64,000 bases of DNA from an uncultured Gammaproteobacteria bacterium (lineage in GTDB: Bacteria > Patescibacteriota > Patescibacteriia > Patescibacteriales > BS150m-G62). The position numbers and the translations under genes were made by a program. The stretch spans positions 23,492-87,491 of the forward strand of contig CAZMSR010000003.1 in assembly GCA_964569045.1 (NCBI GenBank). The letters are read 5' to 3'. Below, piece after piece: positions 48,193 to 57,964 of the stretch (within the stretch, counting starts at the first letter, position 1; each line of letters starts with the position of its first letter). The notes under the pieces are model-generated. The model saw only the letters and a program-made list of their open reading frames with translations, was not told the origin of the DNA and searched no databases.

Positions 48193-50136
48193 TTATTTTT
48201 CCATTTTTTTGTATGTTTTTAAAAATTCAATAGTTTTTTTTCGTTCATCTAGGGCTAATTGTGAAGCATTTTGAGTTTTAAATAAAAAGTTATTAAATAA
48301 AGTGTAATCATTGATAATTTTAATTTTTTGAATATAGGTTTTGGCTTTTTCTGTGTGTGATATTGTTTTTTTACATATTTCTTCTATACAATCATACCAA
48401 AATATTTTTTGTAAATTATGTAAGTCTTTTTCTAAATTTATTTTGTTTTTTTTATATTTTTTTAGAATTTTTATTACAACATATGTTATTTGTCCATTTT
48501 TTAAATCTTTTTCCCAATCGTGTGCATCGTCATTTAATTGTCTGGCAATAATGTAGTGTTTAAAAAATAGTAATAAATGTTTTACTTCTTTTGAATCGGT
48601 TGAATACCCAAGAAGCATTAGTATTGCTATTGGTCCAATAGCATGTCCCATGGATTTTTGAGCTAATATAGACAAGTCTTTAAAATCAGGAAATATATAA
48701 TTTTTAGTATCTATTGTATTTTTTTTAATGGCTATTCTGCAATTGTTAATTTCCCACGAATTTGCTGAATCTATTTTACTTAGAATATCTTCAAAAAAGT
48801 TTTTAAAATCTGGGTTGTTTTGGCTAATATAGAGAATATTTTTATATACTTTTCGTGATAAAATATTTGCTATTGGTAATAGTTTCTCATCTCCTTCATA
48901 GTCTATAATGTTGTCATAAATTGTATAAGCTATCCAGCCTTGTAAGTTAATTTCTCCTAAGCAAATATTATGATTGATGTTTATCTGCTTATTTGCATTG
49001 TTAAGCATTTGAGTAAAAAAGTATGCAAGTAGTATTATTGGTTGCTCTTTGTCGGTTTTTAGGTTTTTTTCTAGGATTTGGTTAATTTCTTTTTGTGAGC
49101 TTTGGTCTAGTTTTTTAAATACTGTTTTTGTGTTTTTTATAACTTCATGTTTTATAAAATTTTTGTTTTCAGAGTTATTTATGTTTCTTTTTTGTTTGTT
49201 ATTTTTGTGTTTGGATAATGCTTCTAAGCAAAATGCCGTTGTTAAGGCCTTTGAACCCGCATGATACTTATTATTATCACCTTTTGGATTAATTCCTAAA
49301 TAAAAAGATTGTGCTGGCCATGCGCCATTCTTACAATTTTTTATTATATAATCAATGCTTTCTTCTTGATTGTTGTGGTGGTGAATATTGTTTAATGTGG
49401 TTAAACTTAGAGCAGTGAATAATGGGTTATTCCAATTGTTGTTTTTATTTTTTGCGTTATTTAAAAAGTCTGCTATATTTTTTTTATTTATGCCATTATA
49501 TGACCTTGATATAAAATAGATTATTGGAAATGGAGAAGTGTAGTATGGAGAAGTATAACTTTCTCTTGTTATTGCTTTATCTATAAAATTGTTTAATCCT
49601 TCAAGATTTACTTCGTGTAAAGATAAAAAGTATGCAATATTGCTGTTAACGGCTAAGTCTGTATCATGCCAAACTTTATCAGCTTCCGGATTAGTGATCC
49701 ATGATTTATAAGGTCCTCCTTCTTTTATTTCTAAATGAGTTAAAAGTGTTACAAATTTTGCCATCACATCGCCGTCAATTAGTTTGTTGTTATATTCATA
49801 AAGCGCAGATAAAGCGCAGCTTGTGTCATCTAAATCATCGGGATATGGCATTTTTAAATAATCTTTTGAGCGTCGATCCCAATAATTAAATGTCCAATGA
49901 TTGGTTTTTTGATTTAAAAGAAAGTAGGCAGCTTTGCGTTTTATTATTTTTATTTCAGGTGTTTCAGCTAATTTACATAGAGCTGATAATATTAAGGTTG
50001 TTGAAAATACAGATTCACATTTATATGCATTGTTAAAATTATTTTCATGGAGTGATGTGTAGCTTGGAAAGCTTCCGTTTCTTTCTTGTTCTGCTAATAG
50101 AAATTTAATTGATTTTTTAATAGTTTCTTTGATCAT
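48193..50136 (-). CDS. two-domain terpenoid-enzyme-like protein (alpha/alpha-toroid prenyltransferase/cyclase-like N-half with DxDDTS; polyprenyl-synthase-like C-half)
   Basis: N-half: NGSFPSY and PDDLDDTSCALSAL (class II cyclase DxDDTA-like). C-half: YDNIIDYEGD and QLNDDAHDWEKDLKNGQIT about 125 aa apart, resembling FARM/SARM spacing in trans-prenyl diphosphate synthases. Confidence 0.45.
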   Translation of the reverse strand: MIKETIKKSIKFLLAEQERNGSFPSYTSLHENNFNNAYKCESVFSTTLILSALCKLAETPEIKIIKRKAAYFLLNQKTNHWTFNYWDRRSKDYLKMPYPDDLDDTSCALSALYEYNNKLIDGDVMAKFVTLLTHLEIKEGGPYKSWITNPEADKVWHDTDLAVNSNIAYFLSLHEVNLEGLNNFIDKAITRESYTSPYYTSPFPIIYFISRSYNGINKKNIADFLNNAKNKNNNWNNPLFTALSLTTLNNIHHHNNQEESIDYIIKNCKNGAWPAQSFYLGINPKGDNNKYHAGSKALTTAFCLEALSKHKNNKQKRNINNSENKNFIKHEVIKNTKTVFKKLDQSSQKEINQILEKNLKTDKEQPIILLAYFFTQMLNNANKQININHNICLGEINLQGWIAYTIYDNIIDYEGDEKLLPIANILSRKVYKNILYISQNNPDFKNFFEDILSKIDSANSWEINNCRIAIKKNTIDTKNYIFPDFKDLSILAQKSMGHAIGPIAILMLLGYSTDSKEVKHLLLFFKHYIIARQLNDDAHDWEKDLKNGQITYVVIKILKKYKKNKINLEKDLHNLQKIFWYDCIEEICKKTISHTEKAKTYIQKIKIINDYTLFNNFLFKTQNASQLALDERKKTIEFLKTYKKMEK

Positions 50137-50169: not shown

Positions 50170-50892
50170 TTATTTAAGAGTTAAAATAAAATATTTTTCT
50201 TTGCCTGTCTTTATTGTGGTTGAATTATATCCACATGAGTCAAAATCTGTAAAAAAACCAAAGGAGAAAGTAAAGCCTAAGTTATTTTTAAGTATATTGT
50301 TAGCATTTAATCGTTTTTTCCCTATTGGTTTATCTGTATATGAGCCAATAAATATTTTTACACTTGTGGATATGCATTTTTTTAATGATATTAAGAGATT
50401 AATAGACGATTCTTTATCTATCATTCCCCAAAAATTATTCATAATAACATTTTTAATATGATCTAATTTTGTAAAATTAAAATTTTCGATTTTTTCCGGA
50501 AATAATTTGATATTTGTATAACTTTCTAGTCTGTATTTTGCTTCATTTAGCATTATTTTAGATCTGTCTATGCCATAAATAGGATTGTATCCTGCATCTG
50601 CACAGCGCATAAGCAGATCTCCTCGACCACACCCAATTTGAAGCACTGATCCTTCGTTGAAGTGTGGTTTTAGTATATCTAATAACCAAGAGTAATCTGC
50701 ATCCTGTAAACTGGCATGCTCTTCGTTAATAAAGTCATACACTTCTGCTCCAGTTTTGATTTTGCCTGAAAGAATATTCTTATAAGCTCCTTCTTCTTTG
50801 ATTTGCTCTAGGATTGATTTGGGGATGAAATTGAATATTTCATCTAATGCTTCTTCGTTTGTCATATGTTTTTTATTAAAAAACTCGGTCAC
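50170..50892 (-). CDS. class I SAM-dependent methyltransferase
   Basis: VLQIGCGRGDL motif I and acidic motif II. Confidence 0.75.
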   Translation of the reverse strand: MTEFFNKKHMTNEEALDEIFNFIPKSILEQIKEEGAYKNILSGKIKTGAEVYDFINEEHASLQDADYSWLLDILKPHFNEGSVLQIGCGRGDLLMRCADAGYNPIYGIDRSKIMLNEAKYRLESYTNIKLFPEKIENFNFTKLDHIKNVIMNNFWGMIDKESSINLLISLKKCISTSVKIFIGSYTDKPIGKKRLNANNILKNNLGFTFSFGFFTDFDSCGYNSTTIKTGKEKYFILTLK

Positions 50893-50926: not shown

Positions 50927-52324
50927 TTATTTATATGTGATTGGAATTACAAGTTTGACTATTGTGCCTTTTCCATATTCGCTTTTAATGTCAATTAAGC
51001 CTTTAAAATCTTTTTTAATAATTTTTTGCGTGGTATATAAGCCAAGACCCATTGTTTGTTTTGTTGTGAAAAATGGTTTAAAAATATTATTTATTACTCC
51101 TTTTTTTATTCCAGGGCCGGTGTCTTTTATTGTGATAATAATTTTTTTGTTTTTTTGAATTAATTCAATAAATATAGAGCAAGGTGTTTTATTATTTTTT
51201 GTTTTAGCACAAGCATCAGTAGCATTGCTTAATATATTAGTTAATACTTGGTTTAGTTTAAATTTATTGCCATATGTTATAATTTTTGTACTCGGCTTAT
51301 TGAAAAAAATTTTAGCTCTACTTTTTTTGGTTTTATAATCAAGTACTGATATGCAATCATCGATTTCGTCTATGACTGAGAAGTAAGTGTCAGTATTACT
51401 TTGTTTGATTTGTTTTTGAGCTGCATTTAAATATTTTTTTACATTTTCGAGATTATTATTTGCTTCGTCTACTGTTTTTTGTATATTAGGTGGTAATTTT
51501 ACGTTTTGCCTTTTGTCGGTTTTTAATTCTTCGATATTTAAATAAACTGTTTGTAAGTGATTTACTAAATCATGAAAAATACCTCCAGATAACTGGCCAA
51601 ATTCATAAAAATGATATAATTGTCCAATTCGTTTTTTTTGCTCTTTTGCTAAATCTTTTGTGCGTTTTTCTACTTTTTCCTCAAGTAAATCACGTTCTTT
51701 TTTAAGTGCTTTTTCTGATTTTCTTGCACGTTTTAATGATTTGTCGAGCTCTCTATTGTATAGCCAGGTTATTGATACTATAATCATTAAAGTGAATCCG
51801 GCAATTGATGCATCACCTAGATTTGTTGGGGTATTTTTCCATGTTGATATTGGGTTTAGAATATGTAATTGTTGTAAGTATGTTAATAGAATTAGTGAAG
51901 CAAAACATATGAGTGTAGTTATTATTGCGATTCTAGTACTAATTAATATAGCTGCCATTGTTATTATTAGTGCATACATTAGTCTTCCTGCTGGCATGTC
52001 AGCTCCCCATGAAATAAAAGAGGATAGTGTAATTAAAAATAAAAAACTTACTAAAATATATGATGAAAAAATAACTTTTTTCTTTTTTGTTAGGATAAAT
52101 AATGTTATGAAGAAAATTGTAATTGCTGTTAATATTAATGGATTGATTTGTTGCTCGGAATACTGTGCTGTATTTAACGTACTTAATATAACTCTTAAAG
52201 TTCCAACGGCTGATAATATTATTGAACCTAATAAAAGTATATATAATATGAATTCTTTACGAGCTAGATCTTCGTTAGTCGAGTTTGGCTGAATAAGTCT
52301 TTTTGTTAGTTTTAATAGTTTCAT
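50927..52324 (-). CDS. membrane sensor histidine kinase with 6-TM N-terminal domain and AgrC/ComD-like H-box
   Basis: Six predicted TM helices; H-box IFHDLVNHL; HATPase_c boxes (SNATDAC, DTGPGI, FKPFFTTK, GLGLYTTQKII). Confidence 0.8.
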   Translation of the reverse strand: MKLLKLTKRLIQPNSTNEDLARKEFILYILLLGSIILSAVGTLRVILSTLNTAQYSEQQINPLILTAITIFFITLFILTKKKKVIFSSYILVSFLFLITLSSFISWGADMPAGRLMYALIITMAAILISTRIAIITTLICFASLILLTYLQQLHILNPISTWKNTPTNLGDASIAGFTLMIIVSITWLYNRELDKSLKRARKSEKALKKERDLLEEKVEKRTKDLAKEQKKRIGQLYHFYEFGQLSGGIFHDLVNHLQTVYLNIEELKTDKRQNVKLPPNIQKTVDEANNNLENVKKYLNAAQKQIKQSNTDTYFSVIDEIDDCISVLDYKTKKSRAKIFFNKPSTKIITYGNKFKLNQVLTNILSNATDACAKTKNNKTPCSIFIELIQKNKKIIITIKDTGPGIKKGVINNIFKPFFTTKQTMGLGLYTTQKIIKKDFKGLIDIKSEYGKGTIVKLVIPITYK

Positions 52325-52337
52325 GTTAAATTATTCT

Positions 52338-52374
52338 AAAAACTAGCTGGATGATATTATGAACATCCAGCTAG
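52338..52374 (-). terminator. strong rho-independent terminator or attenuator between the peptide gene and the kinase gene
   Basis: Perfect 11-bp stem CTAGCTGGATG/CATCCAGCTAG with a 10-nt loop, followed by TTTTT on the minus strand. Confidence 0.6.
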
Positions 52375-52384
52375 ATGGGTGTAT

Positions 52385-52498
52385 TTATTCTCCTCCCCAA
52401 GGATTGCCACCACCAGCAACAGTAACAACAAATGCAGCTAGGCTTGCAGAATTTCTTCCAGCTTTAGTTGATAAAGCTTTTTCGATTAAATTTTTCAT
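52385..52498 (-). CDS. candidate 37-aa peptide (possible signalling or precursor peptide)
   Basis: MKNLIEKALSTKAGRNSASLAAFVVTVAGGGNPWGGE. Locally GC-rich coding stretch ending just before the terminator. The longer 120-aa version of this ORF looks like translated AT-rich spacer. Confidence 0.35.
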   Translation of the reverse strand: MKNLIEKALSTKAGRNSASLAAFVVTVAGGGNPWGGE

Positions 52499-52768
52499 TG
52501 TAATATTGTATTTTAGCAGAAAATATTCTTTTATTGAATCGCGCAATTTAACAAAAGAGTGATTTGCTAAAAAAATGTTTGTAAAAGTGCTCTTTCGACC
52601 TTTTTCAAAATTAATTATATTAATTTTAATAAAGAGCCTTATATGTTGATAATTATATATATAGACAGTTGAAATAAATTTAATAAAAAAATAAAATAAA
52701 AATAAAATCGAAATAAAAAAAAGAGCATTGCATTGCGCTTTGCTCAATTATAAAGAACGATTTTTTGT

Positions 52769-53698
52769 TTAATTTTTTTGTTGTACAGTAACTGTTACTT
52801 GATTGCCCAGTTGGTTATATTCAAGAGTATCAAAGCTTATTTTTTTGGCCATGGCAATGCCTCGTCCGTGTAAATGTGTTACTCGGAGTGGGTCAATTTC
52901 TAGATATTTTTGCCAGTTAAATCCATGACCATCATCTCTGATGGTAAAGACAAGATTATTGTTTGAGTCTTCATGGTAGTGAACTATCACTAATTTTTTT
53001 CTGTATTCTGCTTTTTTAAGACGTCTTTTGATTTCCTCTTCCCACATACCTTCGCTTATTAGCATTGTTTTTTCTTCGTAGGTAATGCCTAAGTTACCAT
53101 GCTCCACGGCATTTATTAATAGCTCTAGAAAACCAACGCCTACAGAGCCTGGGTTATGGCAAAGAGCTGCAAGTATTTTGGCTAAATTATGAGTTTCTTC
53201 AAGGCTTCTTATAGTAAATCTTTTGGTAGGTGGTTTTTTATCTCTATTTGAAGATATTTGTTGTAGTGTGAGATAGTTATTACGGTCTATTAATGCAGTT
53301 TTTATTAATGCAAGTAGCGTTTCTCTTTTAAATGGTTTTGTTAAATAGAAATAGGCTCCAGCATTAATCCCTTTTTGAATTTCTCTTGGGTTAGCGCGCG
53401 CTGTTTGCATTATAATTTGATTTGAATGAAGTCTATTTGAATGTTGAATTTTTTCAAGTATCTCAAGACCACTCATTTTTGGCATCATCCAGTCAAGTAA
53501 TACGAGGTCATAATTTGTATCTGCTTTTAGTATCTTATTCCAAGCTTCTTCTCCGTTAGTTGCTGTCTCAACTTGATATTCGGTTTCATCCAAGAATTCT
53601 TTTATGATCATAAGCATGTAAGGTTCGTCGTCGACTGCAAGAATTCTTGGTTGTTTTTTTGGTTTATCAGATAAGATTGGAATTTGTGAGTTAAGCAT
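52769..53698 (-). CDS. response-regulator receiver fused to a GHKL ATPase (RsbW/SpoIIAB-like serine-kinase domain)
   Basis: REC motifs (ILAVDDEP...LVLLDWMMPKMSG); C-terminal ELLINAVEHG, IRDDGHGF and HGRGIAMAKKI boxes. The ORF extends to 53773; the start is placed at MLNSQIP to avoid an 83-nt overlap. Confidence 0.7.
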   Translation of the reverse strand: MLNSQIPILSDKPKKQPRILAVDDEPYMLMIIKEFLDETEYQVETATNGEEAWNKILKADTNYDLVLLDWMMPKMSGLEILEKIQHSNRLHSNQIIMQTARANPREIQKGINAGAYFYLTKPFKRETLLALIKTALIDRNNYLTLQQISSNRDKKPPTKRFTIRSLEETHNLAKILAALCHNPGSVGVGFLELLINAVEHGNLGITYEEKTMLISEGMWEEEIKRRLKKAEYRKKLVIVHYHEDSNNNLVFTIRDDGHGFNWQKYLEIDPLRVTHLHGRGIAMAKKISFDTLEYNQLGNQVTVTVQQKN

Positions 53699-54863
53699 GG
53701 TTTTCTCCACTTTTAAGCTCCTGGTAGGATTTTTTAATATCATGGATTTGAGGTAGAATTCTGAAAAAAGCATTAACTAACTCAGGGTCGAATTGTTCGC
53801 CTCTTTCTTTTTTTATAAGGTCAAGTGCTTGCTCTTCTTTCCATGCAGATTTATAAGGTCTTTTTGAGGTTAGGGCATCATAAACATCGGCGACTGCAAC
53901 TATTCGACCCGGAAGTGGTATATTTTTGCCTTTTAATCCATTTGGGTATCCATTACCATTCCATTTTTCATGGTGAGTTAGAGCTATGATTCGACCCATT
54001 TCAACTAATTTTGAAGTTGGATTAGCAAGTATTTTGGCACCAATAATTGTGTGTGCATTCATTATTTGACGTTCTTCTGCAGTAAATTTACCTGGCTTAA
54101 GTAAGATGTCATCTCTAATTCCGACTTTTCCGATATCATGCATGGGGGCTGCATAAATATAAGCATCTGCCTGGTAGTTGCTTAGATTGATTGCTAAAGC
54201 CAATTGTTTAGAATACTGACTAACCCGCTTAACATGCATTCCGGTTTCATCGTCACGTATTTCTCCTGTCATACCAAGTCTATGCATTAAATCAATTTGA
54301 GTGGCAAGAATTAATTTGTGTTGTTTTTGACTTTTTTCATATTGATTCTTTAGTCGTATCTTTTGGTCTTTTAGTCTTATTGTACTTTCTTGTAATAATT
54401 GGTTAAGGTTTGAATTTTGTTGCTTTAGTTCTATTTGAGTTAAGTGCAGTTCAAGCAGATTTTTTACCCGTAATAAAAGCTCTTGTCGCTTAAAGGGCTT
54501 AATGAGAAAGTCTCTGACTAAAGAGGTTTTTAGAGCTTTATTGCGTGTGTTTTCATCATTTTTTGCTGATAGGATTATGATCGGTCCATGATGTGATTTA
54601 TCTTGAATCGCTTTAAGTAAGTCAAAACCATTCAAGATAGGCATTACAATATCTAAGAGAATTAAATCAAAGGTTTCTCGAGTTAAAAGGTTTAGTCCTG
54701 TAACTGGTATTGTTGTGGATTGCACGTTTGTGTAGCCCTCCATTTCGAGAAATTCTCGCAAAATTACATTATTTTGCTCTTCATCGTCAATGATGAGAAT
54801 CCTTGCATTCATTGCTGTTTTAGGTTGTATCATTATTTTATTCCTTTGATTGTTTGTCCTCAT
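53691..54863 (-). CDS. response regulator with HD-GYP phosphodiesterase output domain
   Basis: REC domain, then HDIGKVGI and HHEKWNGNGYP motifs. Confidence 0.85.
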   Translation of the reverse strand: MRTNNQRNKIMIQPKTAMNARILIIDDEEQNNVILREFLEMEGYTNVQSTTIPVTGLNLLTRETFDLILLDIVMPILNGFDLLKAIQDKSHHGPIIILSAKNDENTRNKALKTSLVRDFLIKPFKRQELLLRVKNLLELHLTQIELKQQNSNLNQLLQESTIRLKDQKIRLKNQYEKSQKQHKLILATQIDLMHRLGMTGEIRDDETGMHVKRVSQYSKQLALAINLSNYQADAYIYAAPMHDIGKVGIRDDILLKPGKFTAEERQIMNAHTIIGAKILANPTSKLVEMGRIIALTHHEKWNGNGYPNGLKGKNIPLPGRIVAVADVYDALTSKRPYKSAWKEEQALDLIKKERGEQFDPELVNAFFRILPQIHDIKKSYQELKSGENHA

Positions 54864-55003
54864 TTTTAAAAACGTAAATGCAGCGAATTGGTTTTTTCTT
54901 GAAACGAGCTTGCTATTTAACCTAATTTTCTAAGTGGCTAAAGAGAATATGCTTTGAATGTTGCTGTTATCGTCAATAATTAAAATTGTCTTTGTTTTTT
55001 TGT

Positions 55004-56155
55004 CTATTTTGTGTTTTCTTTTTCATTGCAAATTGGGAGGGTGATCTCAAAGCTGGCGCCGACTTTGCTGTTATTTTTACAAGTTATATTGCCATTATGA
55101 GCTAGTATAATTTCTTTGCATATTGCTAGTCCGAGTCCTGTGCCTCCGGTCTTTTGGTTGTTATTATGACTTTGAGTGAATTTATTGAATATATTTTTTA
55201 GCTCTGTCTCCGGAATTCCACAGCCTTGGTCTCTGATTATAATTCTAAATGAGTTATTTTTATCTTTTGAGATAATTATTTTTATTAGCCCACCTTGGTT
55301 AGAAAATTTTATGGCATTGCTCAAGATATTCTGAATTACACGTAATATTTTAATTTTGTCAGCGGTTATTTGAAGATGTTGCTCTTTGGATTCAAAATGT
55401 AAGTGTAATTTTTTTTCTTTAATTAATAGTTTTACTGAATCTAATTCTTTGTTTATAGCGCTTATTAGATCAAAATTTTCTTTATTGAGATCCACTAACC
55501 CTGATTCAAGTTTAGCTAAATCAAGTAAGTCATTTATTAAGGATAATTGCTTTGCTTGACTTTCTTGAATTCCTTCTAAAAATAATGTTATTTTGTCCAA
55601 GTCTTCTTTGATTTCACTTGAAGTTGCCAGAGAATTGATTGAGGTTAGTTCTGTAAGACGTTTTGCTTTTATTTTGGCAAGATAAGCTAAATTCTTAATT
55701 ATGTGCAAAGGTGTTCTAAGATCATGGCTTATATTGGAAAGGAATTCGGTTTTAGCACGATTTGCATTTTCTGCTGCTTGTTTTGCCTCTATCAAACCTT
55801 TTTCAAAAGTTTTTCTAACCGTTAAGTCGCGGATAACACCAATAAATAGCTCTTTCCCAAGAAAATTAAATTCGCAAAGATTTAATTCTAGGTAAAAAGT
55901 GGAACCATTTTTATGTAGTCCAAACATTTCTTTTTCATATTCGTTTTTAGAGAAATAGTCTTGAATACCTTTAAAATGAAATGAAGTAGGAATAATGGTT
56001 TTTAAATTACATCCCATTAATTCATATGAACTGTAGCCAAACATTTTTTTTGTAGCAGGATTTGCAAAAACTATCTCACCATATGTGTTTATGGCAAGTA
56101 CCCCATCATTTGTATTGTTTGCGTTTTTTGTTGTTGAATGCGCGTAATGGTCCAT
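55004..56155 (-). CDS. cytoplasmic PAS-domain sensor histidine kinase
   Basis: PAS (GEIVFANPATKKMFGYSSYEL), H-box NISHDLRTPL, HATPase_c (DQGCGIP, GGTGLGLAICKEII). Confidence 0.85.
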   Translation of the reverse strand: MDHYAHSTTKNANNTNDGVLAINTYGEIVFANPATKKMFGYSSYELMGCNLKTIIPTSFHFKGIQDYFSKNEYEKEMFGLHKNGSTFYLELNLCEFNFLGKELFIGVIRDLTVRKTFEKGLIEAKQAAENANRAKTEFLSNISHDLRTPLHIIKNLAYLAKIKAKRLTELTSINSLATSSEIKEDLDKITLFLEGIQESQAKQLSLINDLLDLAKLESGLVDLNKENFDLISAINKELDSVKLLIKEKKLHLHFESKEQHLQITADKIKILRVIQNILSNAIKFSNQGGLIKIIISKDKNNSFRIIIRDQGCGIPETELKNIFNKFTQSHNNNQKTGGTGLGLAICKEIILAHNGNITCKNNSKVGASFEITLPICNEKENTK

Positions 56156-56344: not shown

Positions 56345-57013
56345 ATGAAAATTTTATTAATAGAGGATGATGCAAAATTGGCAAAAGAATTGAAAAAAAA
56401 ATTGGAGCATGATTTTTTTGTTGTTGATATTGCTGATAATGGAGAGCGTGGATCTTTTTTGGCAAGAACTAGTAGTTATGATTTAATAATACTAGATAAT
56501 ATTTTGCCAAAAAAAGAAGGCAAGGATGTTCTTCATGAGATACGAGATGATAAAAAAAATACATTAATTTTAGTATTAAGCATTAAATTTGAGCCTGGTT
56601 TAAAAACAGAGTTGTTAAATGCCGGAGCAGATGATTATATGCAAAAACCTTATTCTTATCAGGAATTAAAGGCACGAATTAATGCACTTCTAAGAAGAGC
56701 GACGCAAATAAATAATGTTGTTATGAAAATTGGCGCTTTAGAAATAGATACAGGATCTTATAGTGTAAAATATTTAAATAAAAATATTACACTCACTCGT
56801 AAAGAATTTTTATTTTTAGAGTATTTGGGAAGAAATAAAAATAGGGTGGTAAGCAGAGGGGGAATTATAGAGAATGTGTGGGATGTGAATGCAGATTTAT
56901 TTTCCAATGCTATAGAAGCCACTGTTTTAAGGCTTAGAAAAAAATTCAAAAAAATAACAAAAGTTAATATTATTGAAACTATTAATGGTGTGGGGTATAG
57001 AATTAAATGTTAA
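56345..57013 (+). CDS. OmpR-family response regulator
   Basis: REC plus winged-helix Trans_reg_C (LTRKEFLFLEYL...GVGYRI). Confidence 0.9.
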   Translation: MKILLIEDDAKLAKELKKKLEHDFFVVDIADNGERGSFLARTSSYDLIILDNILPKKEGKDVLHEIRDDKKNTLILVLSIKFEPGLKTELLNAGADDYMQKPYSYQELKARINALLRRATQINNVVMKIGALEIDTGSYSVKYLNKNITLTRKEFLFLEYLGRNKNRVVSRGGIIENVWDVNADLFSNAIEATVLRLRKKFKKITKVNIIETINGVGYRIKC

Positions 57014-57017
57014 ATAA

Positions 57018-57290
57018 ATGGAATTGATTAAATTTATTAAAATTAAAAAAATTGTACGAAGTGAAATTGACAAATATATAAATGAAAATAAGCATTTATT
57101 GTCAACTGATGATGCTTATAATATTAATTGTGGTTTAAAGCCTAGGATTGTTGTTAATTCTATAGCTAAGGCGTGCCGCGAATGCAAAAAAGGAGGTTAT
57201 GTAAAACATGAAAATACAAATGATTGTTATTTGAGGATATTTGAGTATGGTACAAAATATGCTACAAAATATTTGTCTAAACTAAAATAG
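57018..57290 (+). CDS. hypothetical small protein
   Basis: 90 aa with a CRECKKGGY motif. Confidence 0.35.
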   Translation: MELIKFIKIKKIVRSEIDKYINENKHLLSTDDAYNINCGLKPRIVVNSIAKACRECKKGGYVKHENTNDCYLRIFEYGTKYATKYLSKLK

Positions 57291-57292
57291 TA

Positions 57293-57964
57293 TTATTTTT
57301 CGTTTATTATGTAACCTCTGCCAGGAACTGTAATAATAATTTTTGTGTTTGTAATTTTTTTGAATTTTTTTCTAAGATTTAAGATGTGGCTTTCAATTGT
57401 ATTTGAAAAAGCATCAGCATTGATATCCCATACTTTTTCCATTAACTCAGCTCTTGATATTATATTTCCTCTATTCTCAGCTAAGTATTTTAATATTAAA
57501 AATTCTTTGCGTCTTAAATATACATCATTATTATTGTACCTTACTTGATTTTTATTGGTATTTATTACAAGCATATTAATATTAATTATGTTTGATTTTA
57601 TTGTAGGTTTTCTTCTTAGTAGTGCTTTTATTCTTGCTTTTAATTCTTGATATGAATAGGGCTTTACTAAATAATCGTCAACACCAGAATTAAATAAATC
57701 AACTTTATCATTAATGTCAAATTTTATTGTAAGCATTATTATTGGAGTATCTATATTTTCATTTCTGATTTCGGTACAAATTTTTTTCCCATTTTTTTCA
57801 GGTAGCACATAGTCGAGGATTATTAGGTCATAGTTATTGGTGCGAGCCCAGAAAGATCCTTTTGTTCCATTTTTTGTCCAATCAACTACATAACAATCTT
57901 GCTCTAAATATTTTTTTAACAAAAAGCCTGTTTTTTGATCATCTTCAATTAAGAGTATTTTCAT
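57293..57964 (-). CDS. OmpR-family response regulator
   Basis: REC plus Trans_reg_C (LRRKEFLILKYL...GRGYII). Confidence 0.9.
   Translation of the reverse strand: MKILLIEDDQKTGFLLKKYLEQDCYVVDWTKNGTKGSFWARTNNYDLIILDYVLPEKNGKKICTEIRNENIDTPIIMLTIKFDINDKVDLFNSGVDDYLVKPYSYQELKARIKALLRRKPTIKSNIININMLVINTNKNQVRYNNNDVYLRRKEFLILKYLAENRGNIISRAELMEKVWDINADAFSNTIESHILNLRKKFKKITNTKIIITVPGRGYIINEK

Follow-up and report, generated by a model that had tools for sequence, protein, structure and literature searches.

What does a 37-residue open reading frame (ORF) encode when it ends 10 nucleotides (nt) before a terminator-like hairpin and is followed, on the same strand, by a histidine kinase with six transmembrane (TM) helices, a methyltransferase, and a large terpenoid-type enzyme? 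This series of features lies on the minus strand of a 64,000-nt stretch of contig CAZMSR010000003.1 (GenBank assembly GCA_964569045.1), referred to here as the window, whose positions serve as coordinates throughout. The original prediction had proposed a peptide-based signalling module, and this is still the best reading of the locus, with the enzyme pointing to a ComX-like, isoprenoid-modified Trp peptide rather than an Agr-like one. In our judgment, there is roughly an even chance that the locus is a ComQXPA-like pheromone module, composed of a Trp peptide and a cyclase-prenyltransferase fusion and widespread in Patescibacteria. Patescibacteria account for much of bacterial diversity; their genomes are tiny and most of them live on other cells. 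No cell-to-cell signalling system is described for them in the searchable literature, and no paper there describes the gene cassette presented here.

The small ORF begins with an ATG at position 52498 and ends with a TAA stop codon (52387-52385), giving the product MKNLIEKALSTKAGRNSASLAAFVVTVAGGGNPWGGE. This peptide has no Pfam match, even at E ≤ 10, and no NCBIfam match, and the protein database holds just two called copies of it, because ORFs this small are seldom called. The family was recovered by fetching 80 metagenomic loci by means of the 650-residue enzyme and searching their six-frame translations with a peptide profile; a metagenome scan with patterns derived from the peptide confirmed nothing. 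A homologue was found at the same position in 64 related loci, corresponding to 57 distinct sequences of 33 to 41 residues, and each locus having enough upstream DNA gave one match (E values of 1e-6 to 1e-18), with a single exception (L087/L088, discussed below). The source contig was itself recovered, along with five copies of it. In the closest relative with upstream DNA (L089, kinase 51% identical), this position encodes MKKLIEKALSTKAGRNSASLGAFVIAVAGAGVPWDN, and the peptide is also retained where the kinases are only 38 to 41% identical.

The alignment of the 57 distinct peptides is nearly gap-free. The peptides have in common an N-terminal motif, MKxLIKKxLTDKxxR, and a variable middle segment, with conservation strongest in the first 15 residues. 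A Trp at about residue 34 is invariant (57/57), is preceded by Pro in 46 of the peptides, and is followed by 0 to 7 further residues; 53 of the 57 lack Cys. That the distance from Met to Trp is almost fixed, despite a variable middle, hints that a docking motif and a residue that would be modified are held apart as if by a ruler. A GGAGG-type ribosome-binding site precedes the ORF in 34 of 57 cases. For close pairs, the ratio of nonsynonymous to synonymous substitution rates (dN/dS) is 0.03 to 0.3 (0.29 for the window and L089, 0.03 to 0.12 for other close pairs); only such pairs were used, since the pooled value for distant pairs (0.73) is meaningless owing to saturation of synonymous sites. 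The 37-residue ORF is a real, conserved gene under purifying selection, and the conservation data rule out a spurious ORF. Conservation, synteny, and dN/dS together bear out the prediction that this is a genuine gene coupled to the kinase. The middle segment has TM-like hydrophobicity in 24 of the 57 peptides and is hydrophilic in 11; a small membrane toxin or anchor was ruled out as well, hydrophobicity not being conserved in the family. Among individual peptides, that of L146 ends in PWCC and that of L092 in PWGWKK, while those of L103 and L109 contain GWPW.

The exceptional genome (L087/L088) carries a fragment of a Y1 (IS200-like) transposase gene exactly at the expected peptide site (6660-6884 in L087, 1-151 in L088). 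No peptide homologue was found in 16 kb, whereas the kinase, methyltransferase, and enzyme are intact; the enzyme of this genome, at 67% identity, is the closest homologue among the matches listed. This genome represents a natural loss or relocation of the peptide.

The gene order around the peptide is also conserved. In all loci but one, the kinase gene ends within tens of nucleotides of the gene for the ~650-residue enzyme, and in 48 of 56 loci an OmpR-type response regulator (Response_reg plus Trans_reg_C) ends 134 to 359 nt before the peptide stop codon. The canonical unit therefore consists of regulator, peptide, kinase, and ~650-residue enzyme; in 48 of 56 related loci these four genes are contiguous and share a strand. 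Dozens of loci that are only distantly related have peptide, kinase, and enzyme in this order, far more than chance would produce. Source labels place the cassette in Microgenomates, Parcubacteria, Pacebacteria, and Levybacteria, and its retention in hundreds of reduced genomes makes it likely to be important to the lifestyle of these organisms. In the one locus that departs from the kinase-enzyme linkage (L154, 4713-7076), the peptide gene, encoding MQKLLQEVLTDKTTRDKDALSLLALNVDNYLPWQD, lies 112 nt upstream of a 698-residue enzyme homologue, and no family kinase or OmpR-type regulator is found within 5 kb upstream; the peptide is therefore tied to the enzyme independently of the kinase. The original prediction had placed an S-adenosylmethionine (SAM)-dependent methyltransferase and a large terpenoid-enzyme-like protein further downstream on the same strand, and both are present in the window. 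Of these, the terpenoid-type enzyme is not a bystander: no other partner is linked so tightly to the kinase and peptide.

The enzyme is 647 residues long, and its family numbers >500 proteins, most of which carry the annotation hypothetical. Its AlphaFold2 model (predicted local distance difference test [pLDDT] score of 91.3) consists of two all-helical domains. For the N-terminal domain (residues 1 to 315), comparison of the family profile with the Protein Data Bank (PDB) gave a match to drimenol synthase, in its cyclase domain (E = 1.6e-11), and the sequence PYPDDLDDT aligned to the catalytic PDDLDTT of the drimenol synthase AsDMS; Foldseek likewise returned drimenol and drimenyl diphosphate synthases and squalene-hopene cyclases (E = 1e-10). 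The domain thus has the alpha/alpha-barrel and the DxDD(T) acid motif of a class II terpene cyclase. Residues D101, D103, D408, D412, Q533, D536, and D540 are invariant in 35 enzyme sequences, and D100, D104, and T105 are conserved in at least 90%.

The C-terminal domain (residues ~320 to 647) adopts the trans-isoprenyl pyrophosphate synthase (trans-IPPS) fold. Foldseek matched it to hexaprenyl, farnesyl, and geranylgeranyl diphosphate synthases and to the Trp farnesyltransferase Ord1 (E values of 1e-4 to 1e-3), while at the sequence level the domain has no PDB match at E ≤ 10. Its first motif, YDDFLD in the family consensus and YDNIID in the window, occupies the position of FARM (the Asp-rich motif that comes first) and agrees with the DDxxD of ComQ. 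The second, Q533-L-N535-D536-D537-A-H-D540, occupies the position of the second aspartate-rich motif (SARM) and can be read as NDxxx or, by its Q-x-x-D-D spacing, as DDxxD. By inspection, the enzyme consensus lacks the RRG that follows motif 1 and the GK...KT that follows motif 2 in canonical synthases. These are the basic motifs through which such synthases bind isopentenyl diphosphate (IPP).

An isoprenoid-fold enzyme beside a Trp peptide and a kinase recalls ComQXPA, the pheromone system of Bacillus, in which ComQ, a trans-IPPS-like enzyme, prenylates a Trp of ComX (PMC4008528, PMC5331326). ComX is variable except for a Trp lying within its last 5 to 10 residues, and comQXPA consists of four adjacent genes on the same strand (PMC4008528). 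Like the cassette described here, it combines an isoprenoid-fold enzyme, a short precursor in which a Trp near the C terminus is the sole conserved core residue, a polytopic kinase, and a response regulator, with no dedicated exporter. The cassette peptides resemble ComX in the position of the Trp (57/57, with 0 to 7 residues after it), and the gene adjacency is reproduced in 48 of 56 loci, the window's own regulator lying ~4.8 kb upstream. The individual proteins differ, however. The cassette enzyme is ~650 residues long, carries an extra class II cyclase domain, and does not match PF00348; ComX has 52 to 73 residues, whereas the cassette peptide has 33 to 41 and does not match PF05952. ComP is a HisKA_3 kinase (PF07730), whereas the cassette kinase is of the HisKA type with six TM helices, the multiple-TM part being alike; ComA is NarL-type, whereas the cassette regulator is OmpR-type. 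The gene order (regulator, peptide, kinase, enzyme) and the phylum, Patescibacteria, differ as well. The cassette would be an analogue of ComQXPA in which no protein is a detectable homologue.

Other modified-Trp systems are related in part. ComQ, PalQ, and ChrPC are trans-isoprenyl diphosphate synthase (trans-IDS)-like, and every characterized member targets Trp (PMC13290415). According to the same source, a 2026 review citing Hubrich et al. 2024, ChrPC and NctPC are maturases in which prenyltransferase and cyclase are fused; they first prenylate Trp and next cyclize the isoprenoid (PMC13290415). Like the cassette enzyme, these unite a prenyltransferase (trans-IDS-like in ChrPC) and a class II cyclase in one polypeptide with a Trp peptide nearby. 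As compared by description, the domain order appears to differ, the name ChrPC suggesting that the prenyltransferase comes first and the cassette enzyme having its cyclase at the N terminus. The cassette cyclase domain is closest to the drimenol synthase beta-domain rather than to MstE, the cassette precursors form a separate family of very short peptides, and the cassette is coupled to a two-component system. The PalP/PalX/PalQ cluster of Paenibacillus alvei contains a histidine kinase, a Trp precursor, and the prenyltransferase of that precursor (PMC10853753), and StheQ/StheX of Sphaerobacter extend the ComQ/ComX pattern (bioRxiv 10.64898/2026.08.29.745113). Both pairs resemble the cassette in having a ComQ-like, trans-IDS-fold Trp prenyltransferase beside a precursor with a C-terminal Trp, in the Pal case also with a histidine kinase, and they demonstrate modules of this sort beyond Bacillus. 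PalX differs in being longer and in having an NHLP-type leader, with cleavage reported between T72 and D73; StheX has 69 residues; and PalQ and StheQ are single-domain enzymes with an NDxxx pseudo-SARM and no cyclase domain. Finally, drimenol and drimenyl diphosphate synthases (AsDMS, PDB entry 9mhs; SsDMS, PDB entry 7xq4) and squalene-hopene cyclases share the fold of the N-terminal 310 residues of the cassette enzyme; they act on free farnesyl diphosphate (FPP) or squalene, are partnered with a HAD phosphatase or a second barrel, and have no link to a peptide or kinase.

From the gene linkage, the folds, and these parallels, we infer that the peptide is modified, exported, and sensed by the adjacent kinase, and a scheme can be proposed. 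The product of the 37-residue ORF would be the precursor of a peptide made by the ribosome and modified after translation (RiPP) with a signalling role. Its basic N-terminal segment, MKxLIKKxLTDKxxR, would dock it on the ~650-residue enzyme, whose C-terminal trans-IPPS-fold domain, holding a prenyl diphosphate by the two Asp-rich motifs, would alkylate the Trp near residue 34. At the N terminus, the class II cyclase domain would then protonate the attached isoprenoid through its DxDD acid and cyclize it, and in the clade of the window the methyltransferase may add a further modification. The lipophilic product would be processed, exported, and sensed within the membrane by the 6-TM kinase. The kinase would phosphorylate the OmpR-type regulator, which may act on the promoter with the repeats in front of the peptide gene (autoinduction), while the hairpin would terminate most transcripts, leaving the precursor in large excess and the kinase and enzyme to be reached by read-through. 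If the peptide is prenylated and cyclized on Trp, ComX-type pheromone chemistry reaches a distant phylum, the new class of terpenoid-modified ribosomal peptides is linked to signalling, and it must be asked from what source such organisms draw their prenyl diphosphates. With one peptide and one enzyme, the system is compact and is directly testable by heterologous expression. A broader proposal, that Patescibacteria widely use a private language of peptides with a polycyclic terpenoid on Trp, built on a ~36-residue precursor, one fusion enzyme, and an autoinducing 6-TM kinase/OmpR loop, is tentative and probably goes too far; if true, it would mean the first quorum-sensing or kin-recognition system in the phylum and a new terpenoid-peptide pheromone class that evolved independently of ComQXPA.

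Several observations weigh against a modified Trp pheromone. The second motif of the enzyme, QLNDDAHD, may be a canonical FQxxDDxxD-like sequence instead of the NDxxx pseudo-SARM required in ComQ (PMC5331326), and the enzyme could therefore ionize or condense prenyl diphosphates without touching the peptide. Neither the window enzyme nor its 35 relatives match PF00348, and an hhalign comparison of the C-terminal domain with Escherichia coli IspA was not significant (probability of 0.7%). A free cyclic terpenoid made by the enzyme could itself be what the kinase senses. The near-constant distance from the N terminus to the Trp would equally suit a structural or regulatory small protein. In the window, the candidate cognate regulator is not adjacent, having been displaced by signalling genes. 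Neither a processing protease nor an exporter was identified. The Pfam domains of genes called in the 10 kb around the kinase include no ABC exporter or peptidase, a feature shared with comQXPA that speaks for the module.

Among the alternatives, the modified peptide could be an effector (an antimicrobial or a factor acting on the host bacterium), with the two-component system regulating its production or sensing it, in the manner of lantibiotic systems such as NisRK. Natural-product clusters for RiPPs are where the known fused prenyltransferase-cyclase maturases come from (PMC13290415), attachment to host cells is the way of life of Patescibacteria (PMC11665869), and the strongly hydrophobic middle of 24 of the 57 peptides is like that of membrane-active peptides. 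Nevertheless, neither the conserved cassette nor the 10 kb around the kinase contains an immunity gene, ABC exporter, or leader peptidase, each locus has one copy of the precursor, and a dedicated membrane kinase and regulator are always in the cassette, as in pheromone systems. We consider an effector unlikely.

A second alternative leaves the peptide unmodified, as a small protein that modulates the kinase (a connector like MgrB or SafA), while the enzyme makes a separate cyclic terpenoid that the kinase monitors. It would account for the near-constant N-terminus-to-Trp distance and whole-length conservation of the peptide, for the two Asp-rich motifs, if read in canonical form, for the relationship of the cyclase domain to enzymes that use free FPP, and for a kinase-enzyme linkage even tighter than that of peptide and kinase. 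It is harder to reconcile with a middle segment that is hydrophilic in 11 of the 57 peptides and TM-like in just 24, so that membrane anchoring is not conserved, and with L154, which retains peptide and enzyme without a kinase. The missing RRG and GK...KT motifs argue against synthesis of a free terpenoid, and an invariant Trp beside a trans-IPPS-fold enzyme has its precedent in ComQ, PalQ, and ChrPC (PMC13290415). We regard this possibility as distinctly improbable.

The hairpin raises a third alternative. Direct reading confirmed the 37-residue ORF, the 10-nt spacer (52384-52375), the perfect 11-bp stem, and the T-tract of the original prediction: the arms CTAGCTGGATG (52374-52364) and CATCCAGCTAG (52353-52343) pair over 11 bp, 6 of them G-C, around a 10-nt loop, and the run TTTTT (52342-52338) follows directly. 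As RNA, the element has a folding energy of -22.3 kcal/mol (z = -3.4), and 0 of 200 shuffled sequences fold as well. It has the GC-containing stem-loop and U-tract of an intrinsic terminator and was missed by a consensus terminator scan because the loop limit of that scan is 8 nt; an Rfam search of positions 52250 to 52850 found nothing. The kinase start lies close to the hairpin, as predicted, but not at the 14 nt given in that prediction; its ATG at 52324 is 13 nt past the T-run and 18 nt past the stem. The proposed architecture is shared by roughly half of the relatives: a hairpin with a T-run lies between peptide stop and kinase start in 31 of 58 distinct loci, compared with 5% of shuffled controls, and is therefore a frequent but optional device. 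These hairpins are unrelated in sequence; L089 and L090, for instance, have hairpins that differ from that of the window. In L089 (7980-8060), hairpin arms of 12 to 13 nt enclose a loop of ~55 nt that holds the annotated kinase start codon, and the hairpin could therefore affect translation of the kinase as well as termination. Loci without a hairpin (27/58) have a short gap or overlapping ORFs, several peptide ORFs overlapping the kinase start.

Such a hairpin fits the need for far more precursor than kinase and enzyme, and an excess of precursor over the other gene products is typical of many RiPP operons. The ORF might instead encode a leader or arrest peptide, in which a ribosome at the Pro-Trp site controls the terminator and hence the kinase and enzyme (TnaC or trp-leader type). 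The stop codon 10 nt before a terminator-like hairpin, the recurrence of such hairpins, and the conserved Trp and Pro, which are typical of arrest peptides, speak for this explanation. We nonetheless find it very hard to sustain, given that 27 of 58 loci have no hairpin, that several ORFs overlap the kinase start, and that the distance from Trp to stop varies from 0 to 7 residues, unlike the fixed geometry of arrest peptides; moreover, conservation peaks in the N-terminal 15 residues, and the ORF of L154 directly precedes the enzyme gene.

The kinase, for its part, bears on whether the module could be of the Agr type. It is 465 residues long and contains the sequence GGIFHDLVNHL. The six predicted N-terminal TM helices were recovered in the AlphaFold2 model (pLDDT of 80.7; residues 18-51, 62-80, 84-106, 111-127, 130-152, and 169-190) and agree with hydropathy, which gives five strong segments and one moderate one. 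In the model, the last TM helix runs straight into the helix of the dimerization and histidine phosphotransfer (DHp) domain, with no HAMP and no periplasmic domain. HATPase_c matches the window kinase at 2.8e-18 (66.8 bits, versus 25.1 bits for HATPase_c_5), HisKA (PF00512) matches 18 of 26 members of the kinase family, and HisKA_3 matches none of the 26. The best NCBIfam models are AtoS, VirA-like, PrsK, and CckA, and a PDB alignment pairs the kinase H-box GQLSGGIFHDLVNHL with GQLAGGVAHDFNNLL of CckA. The kinase is thus of the HisKA type rather than HisKA_3, with a purely membrane-embedded sensor. All source-named sequences among its 593 detected homologues are from Patescibacteria, and the family is conserved from end to end, membrane domain included. 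A scan of genome contigs with an alignment of the whole kinase, its patterns taken from the catalytic core, gave only generic kinases of other phyla among the matches listed.

AgrC and ComD resemble the cassette kinase in having a membrane-only sensor of about six helices beside a small peptide gene, a similar kind of receptor, but differ from it in that its core is HisKA/HATPase_c and its partner is OmpR-type rather than LytTR. The resemblance to the HPK10 family that had been proposed does not hold, because the kinase core is HisKA-type, down to its CckA-like H-box, and the partner regulator is not LytTR. The Agr/Com-type reading, with an HPK10 kinase as sensor of a thiolactone or unmodified peptide, could draw on the six TM helices, the weak HATPase_c_5 match, and the small upstream peptide gene but is largely refuted by these family assignments and scarcely credible in the light of 53 of 57 peptides without Cys and no AgrB-like or ComAB-like processing gene within 10 kb.

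The features of the locus are collected in Table 1.

Table 1. Positions of the cassette and neighbouring features in the window
Feature	Position	Strand	Basis
Putative precursor peptide gene, 37 residues, Trp34 followed by GGE	52385..52498	-	ORF read directly, family profile
Intercistronic hairpin with T5, terminator/attenuator-like	52338..52374	-	Fold energy, recurrence in relatives
Sensor histidine kinase, six TM helices, HisKA-type DHp (H251), HATPase_c	50927..52324	-	Pfam, NCBIfam, PDB alignment, AlphaFold2
SAM-dependent methyltransferase between kinase and enzyme	50170..50892	-	Methyltransf_25/31/23
Fusion enzyme, class II terpene cyclase plus trans-IPPS-fold domain	48193..50136	-	Profile versus PDB, AlphaFold2, Foldseek
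Putative promoter/5' region of peptide gene, TTTAT repeats and GGTCGA	52499..52722	-	Direct reading, recurrence in relatives
Terminator-like hairpin with T8 after REC-HATPase_c_2 gene	52715..52745	-	-14.6 kcal/mol, z = -2.6
OmpR-type response regulator, candidate cognate	57293..57964	-	40.5% identity to L093 regulator

The REC-HATPase_c_2 gene, which lies upstream of the peptide gene, has a hairpin and T8 of its own at its end, and L089 has an equivalent hairpin. With hairpins on both sides, the peptide gene sits between two terminator-like elements, behind an AT-rich region of 220 nt, and the upstream element probably separates it from upstream transcription. Direct TTTAT repeats with an 11-nt period begin at 52717, 52706, and 52695 (minus strand, region 52717-52691). 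Taken alone, the repeats of the window are weak evidence given its AT-rich DNA; in 13 loci, however, a TGATATAAT-like -10 box has three TTTAY repeats with the same period upstream of it. In the L116-L125 clade the repeats read CTTTAC, and in L116, L119, and L124 they lie ~106 nt upstream of the peptide ATG. Their spacing makes them a candidate binding site for an OmpR-type regulator, which would close the autoinduction loop.

A second recurrent motif, GGTCGR (mostly AGGTCGA), is found in the window (52600-52595, minus strand), in L089 (at ~7762), and in 16 further loci (such as L116, L117, L122, L125, and L145). It generally lies 33 to 50 nt upstream of the peptide ATG, although L089 and the window have it ~100 nt away. 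Of the loci without a Shine-Dalgarno sequence, 18 of 23 carry the motif, versus 4 of 34 with one, against a shuffle rate of 4%; the repeats, too, recur in relatives of this kind. The motif could mark a transcript start, a processing site, or a binding site.

The assignment of the minus-strand OmpR-type gene of Table 1 as the cognate regulator in the window is provisional, drawn from its similarity to the L093 regulator, which stands immediately before the peptide gene in that locus. Its distance from the peptide gene (~4.8 kb) is taken up in part by an additional signalling block (52769-56155, minus strand), found at this place in the window and L089 only and comprising genes for a PAS-HisKA kinase, for a REC-HD-GYP protein, and for an anti-sigma-kinase-like fusion, REC-HATPase_c_2. 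At its 3' end, the REC-HD-GYP ORF (53691-54863) runs into the next ORF when the latter is read at its longest (52769-53773). Beyond this block, two paralogous OmpR-type regulators (222 and 223 residues, 56345-57964) lie on opposite strands, the one at 56345-57013 on the plus strand, and flank a 90-residue ORF (57018-57290) with no Pfam match recorded; the trio is also present in L089.

The methyltransferase is specific to the clade of the window, being present in the window, L087, and L090; in more distant loci it is absent and the kinase abuts the enzyme. Among NCBIfam models it is closest to a corrinoid-protein-associated methyltransferase (45 residues, E = 1.9e-8), and its similarity to RiPP methyltransferases is weak and below threshold (daptide-type, E = 0.0016; ApyS, E = 0.055). 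PADLOC returned no match for the kinase or enzyme and weak, partial matches of the methyltransferase to mad2 (E = 7.2e-07) and of the REC-HATPase_c_2 protein to SduA (E = 0.00026). As these matches are at the domain level only, we did not adopt a reading of the two as defence genes.

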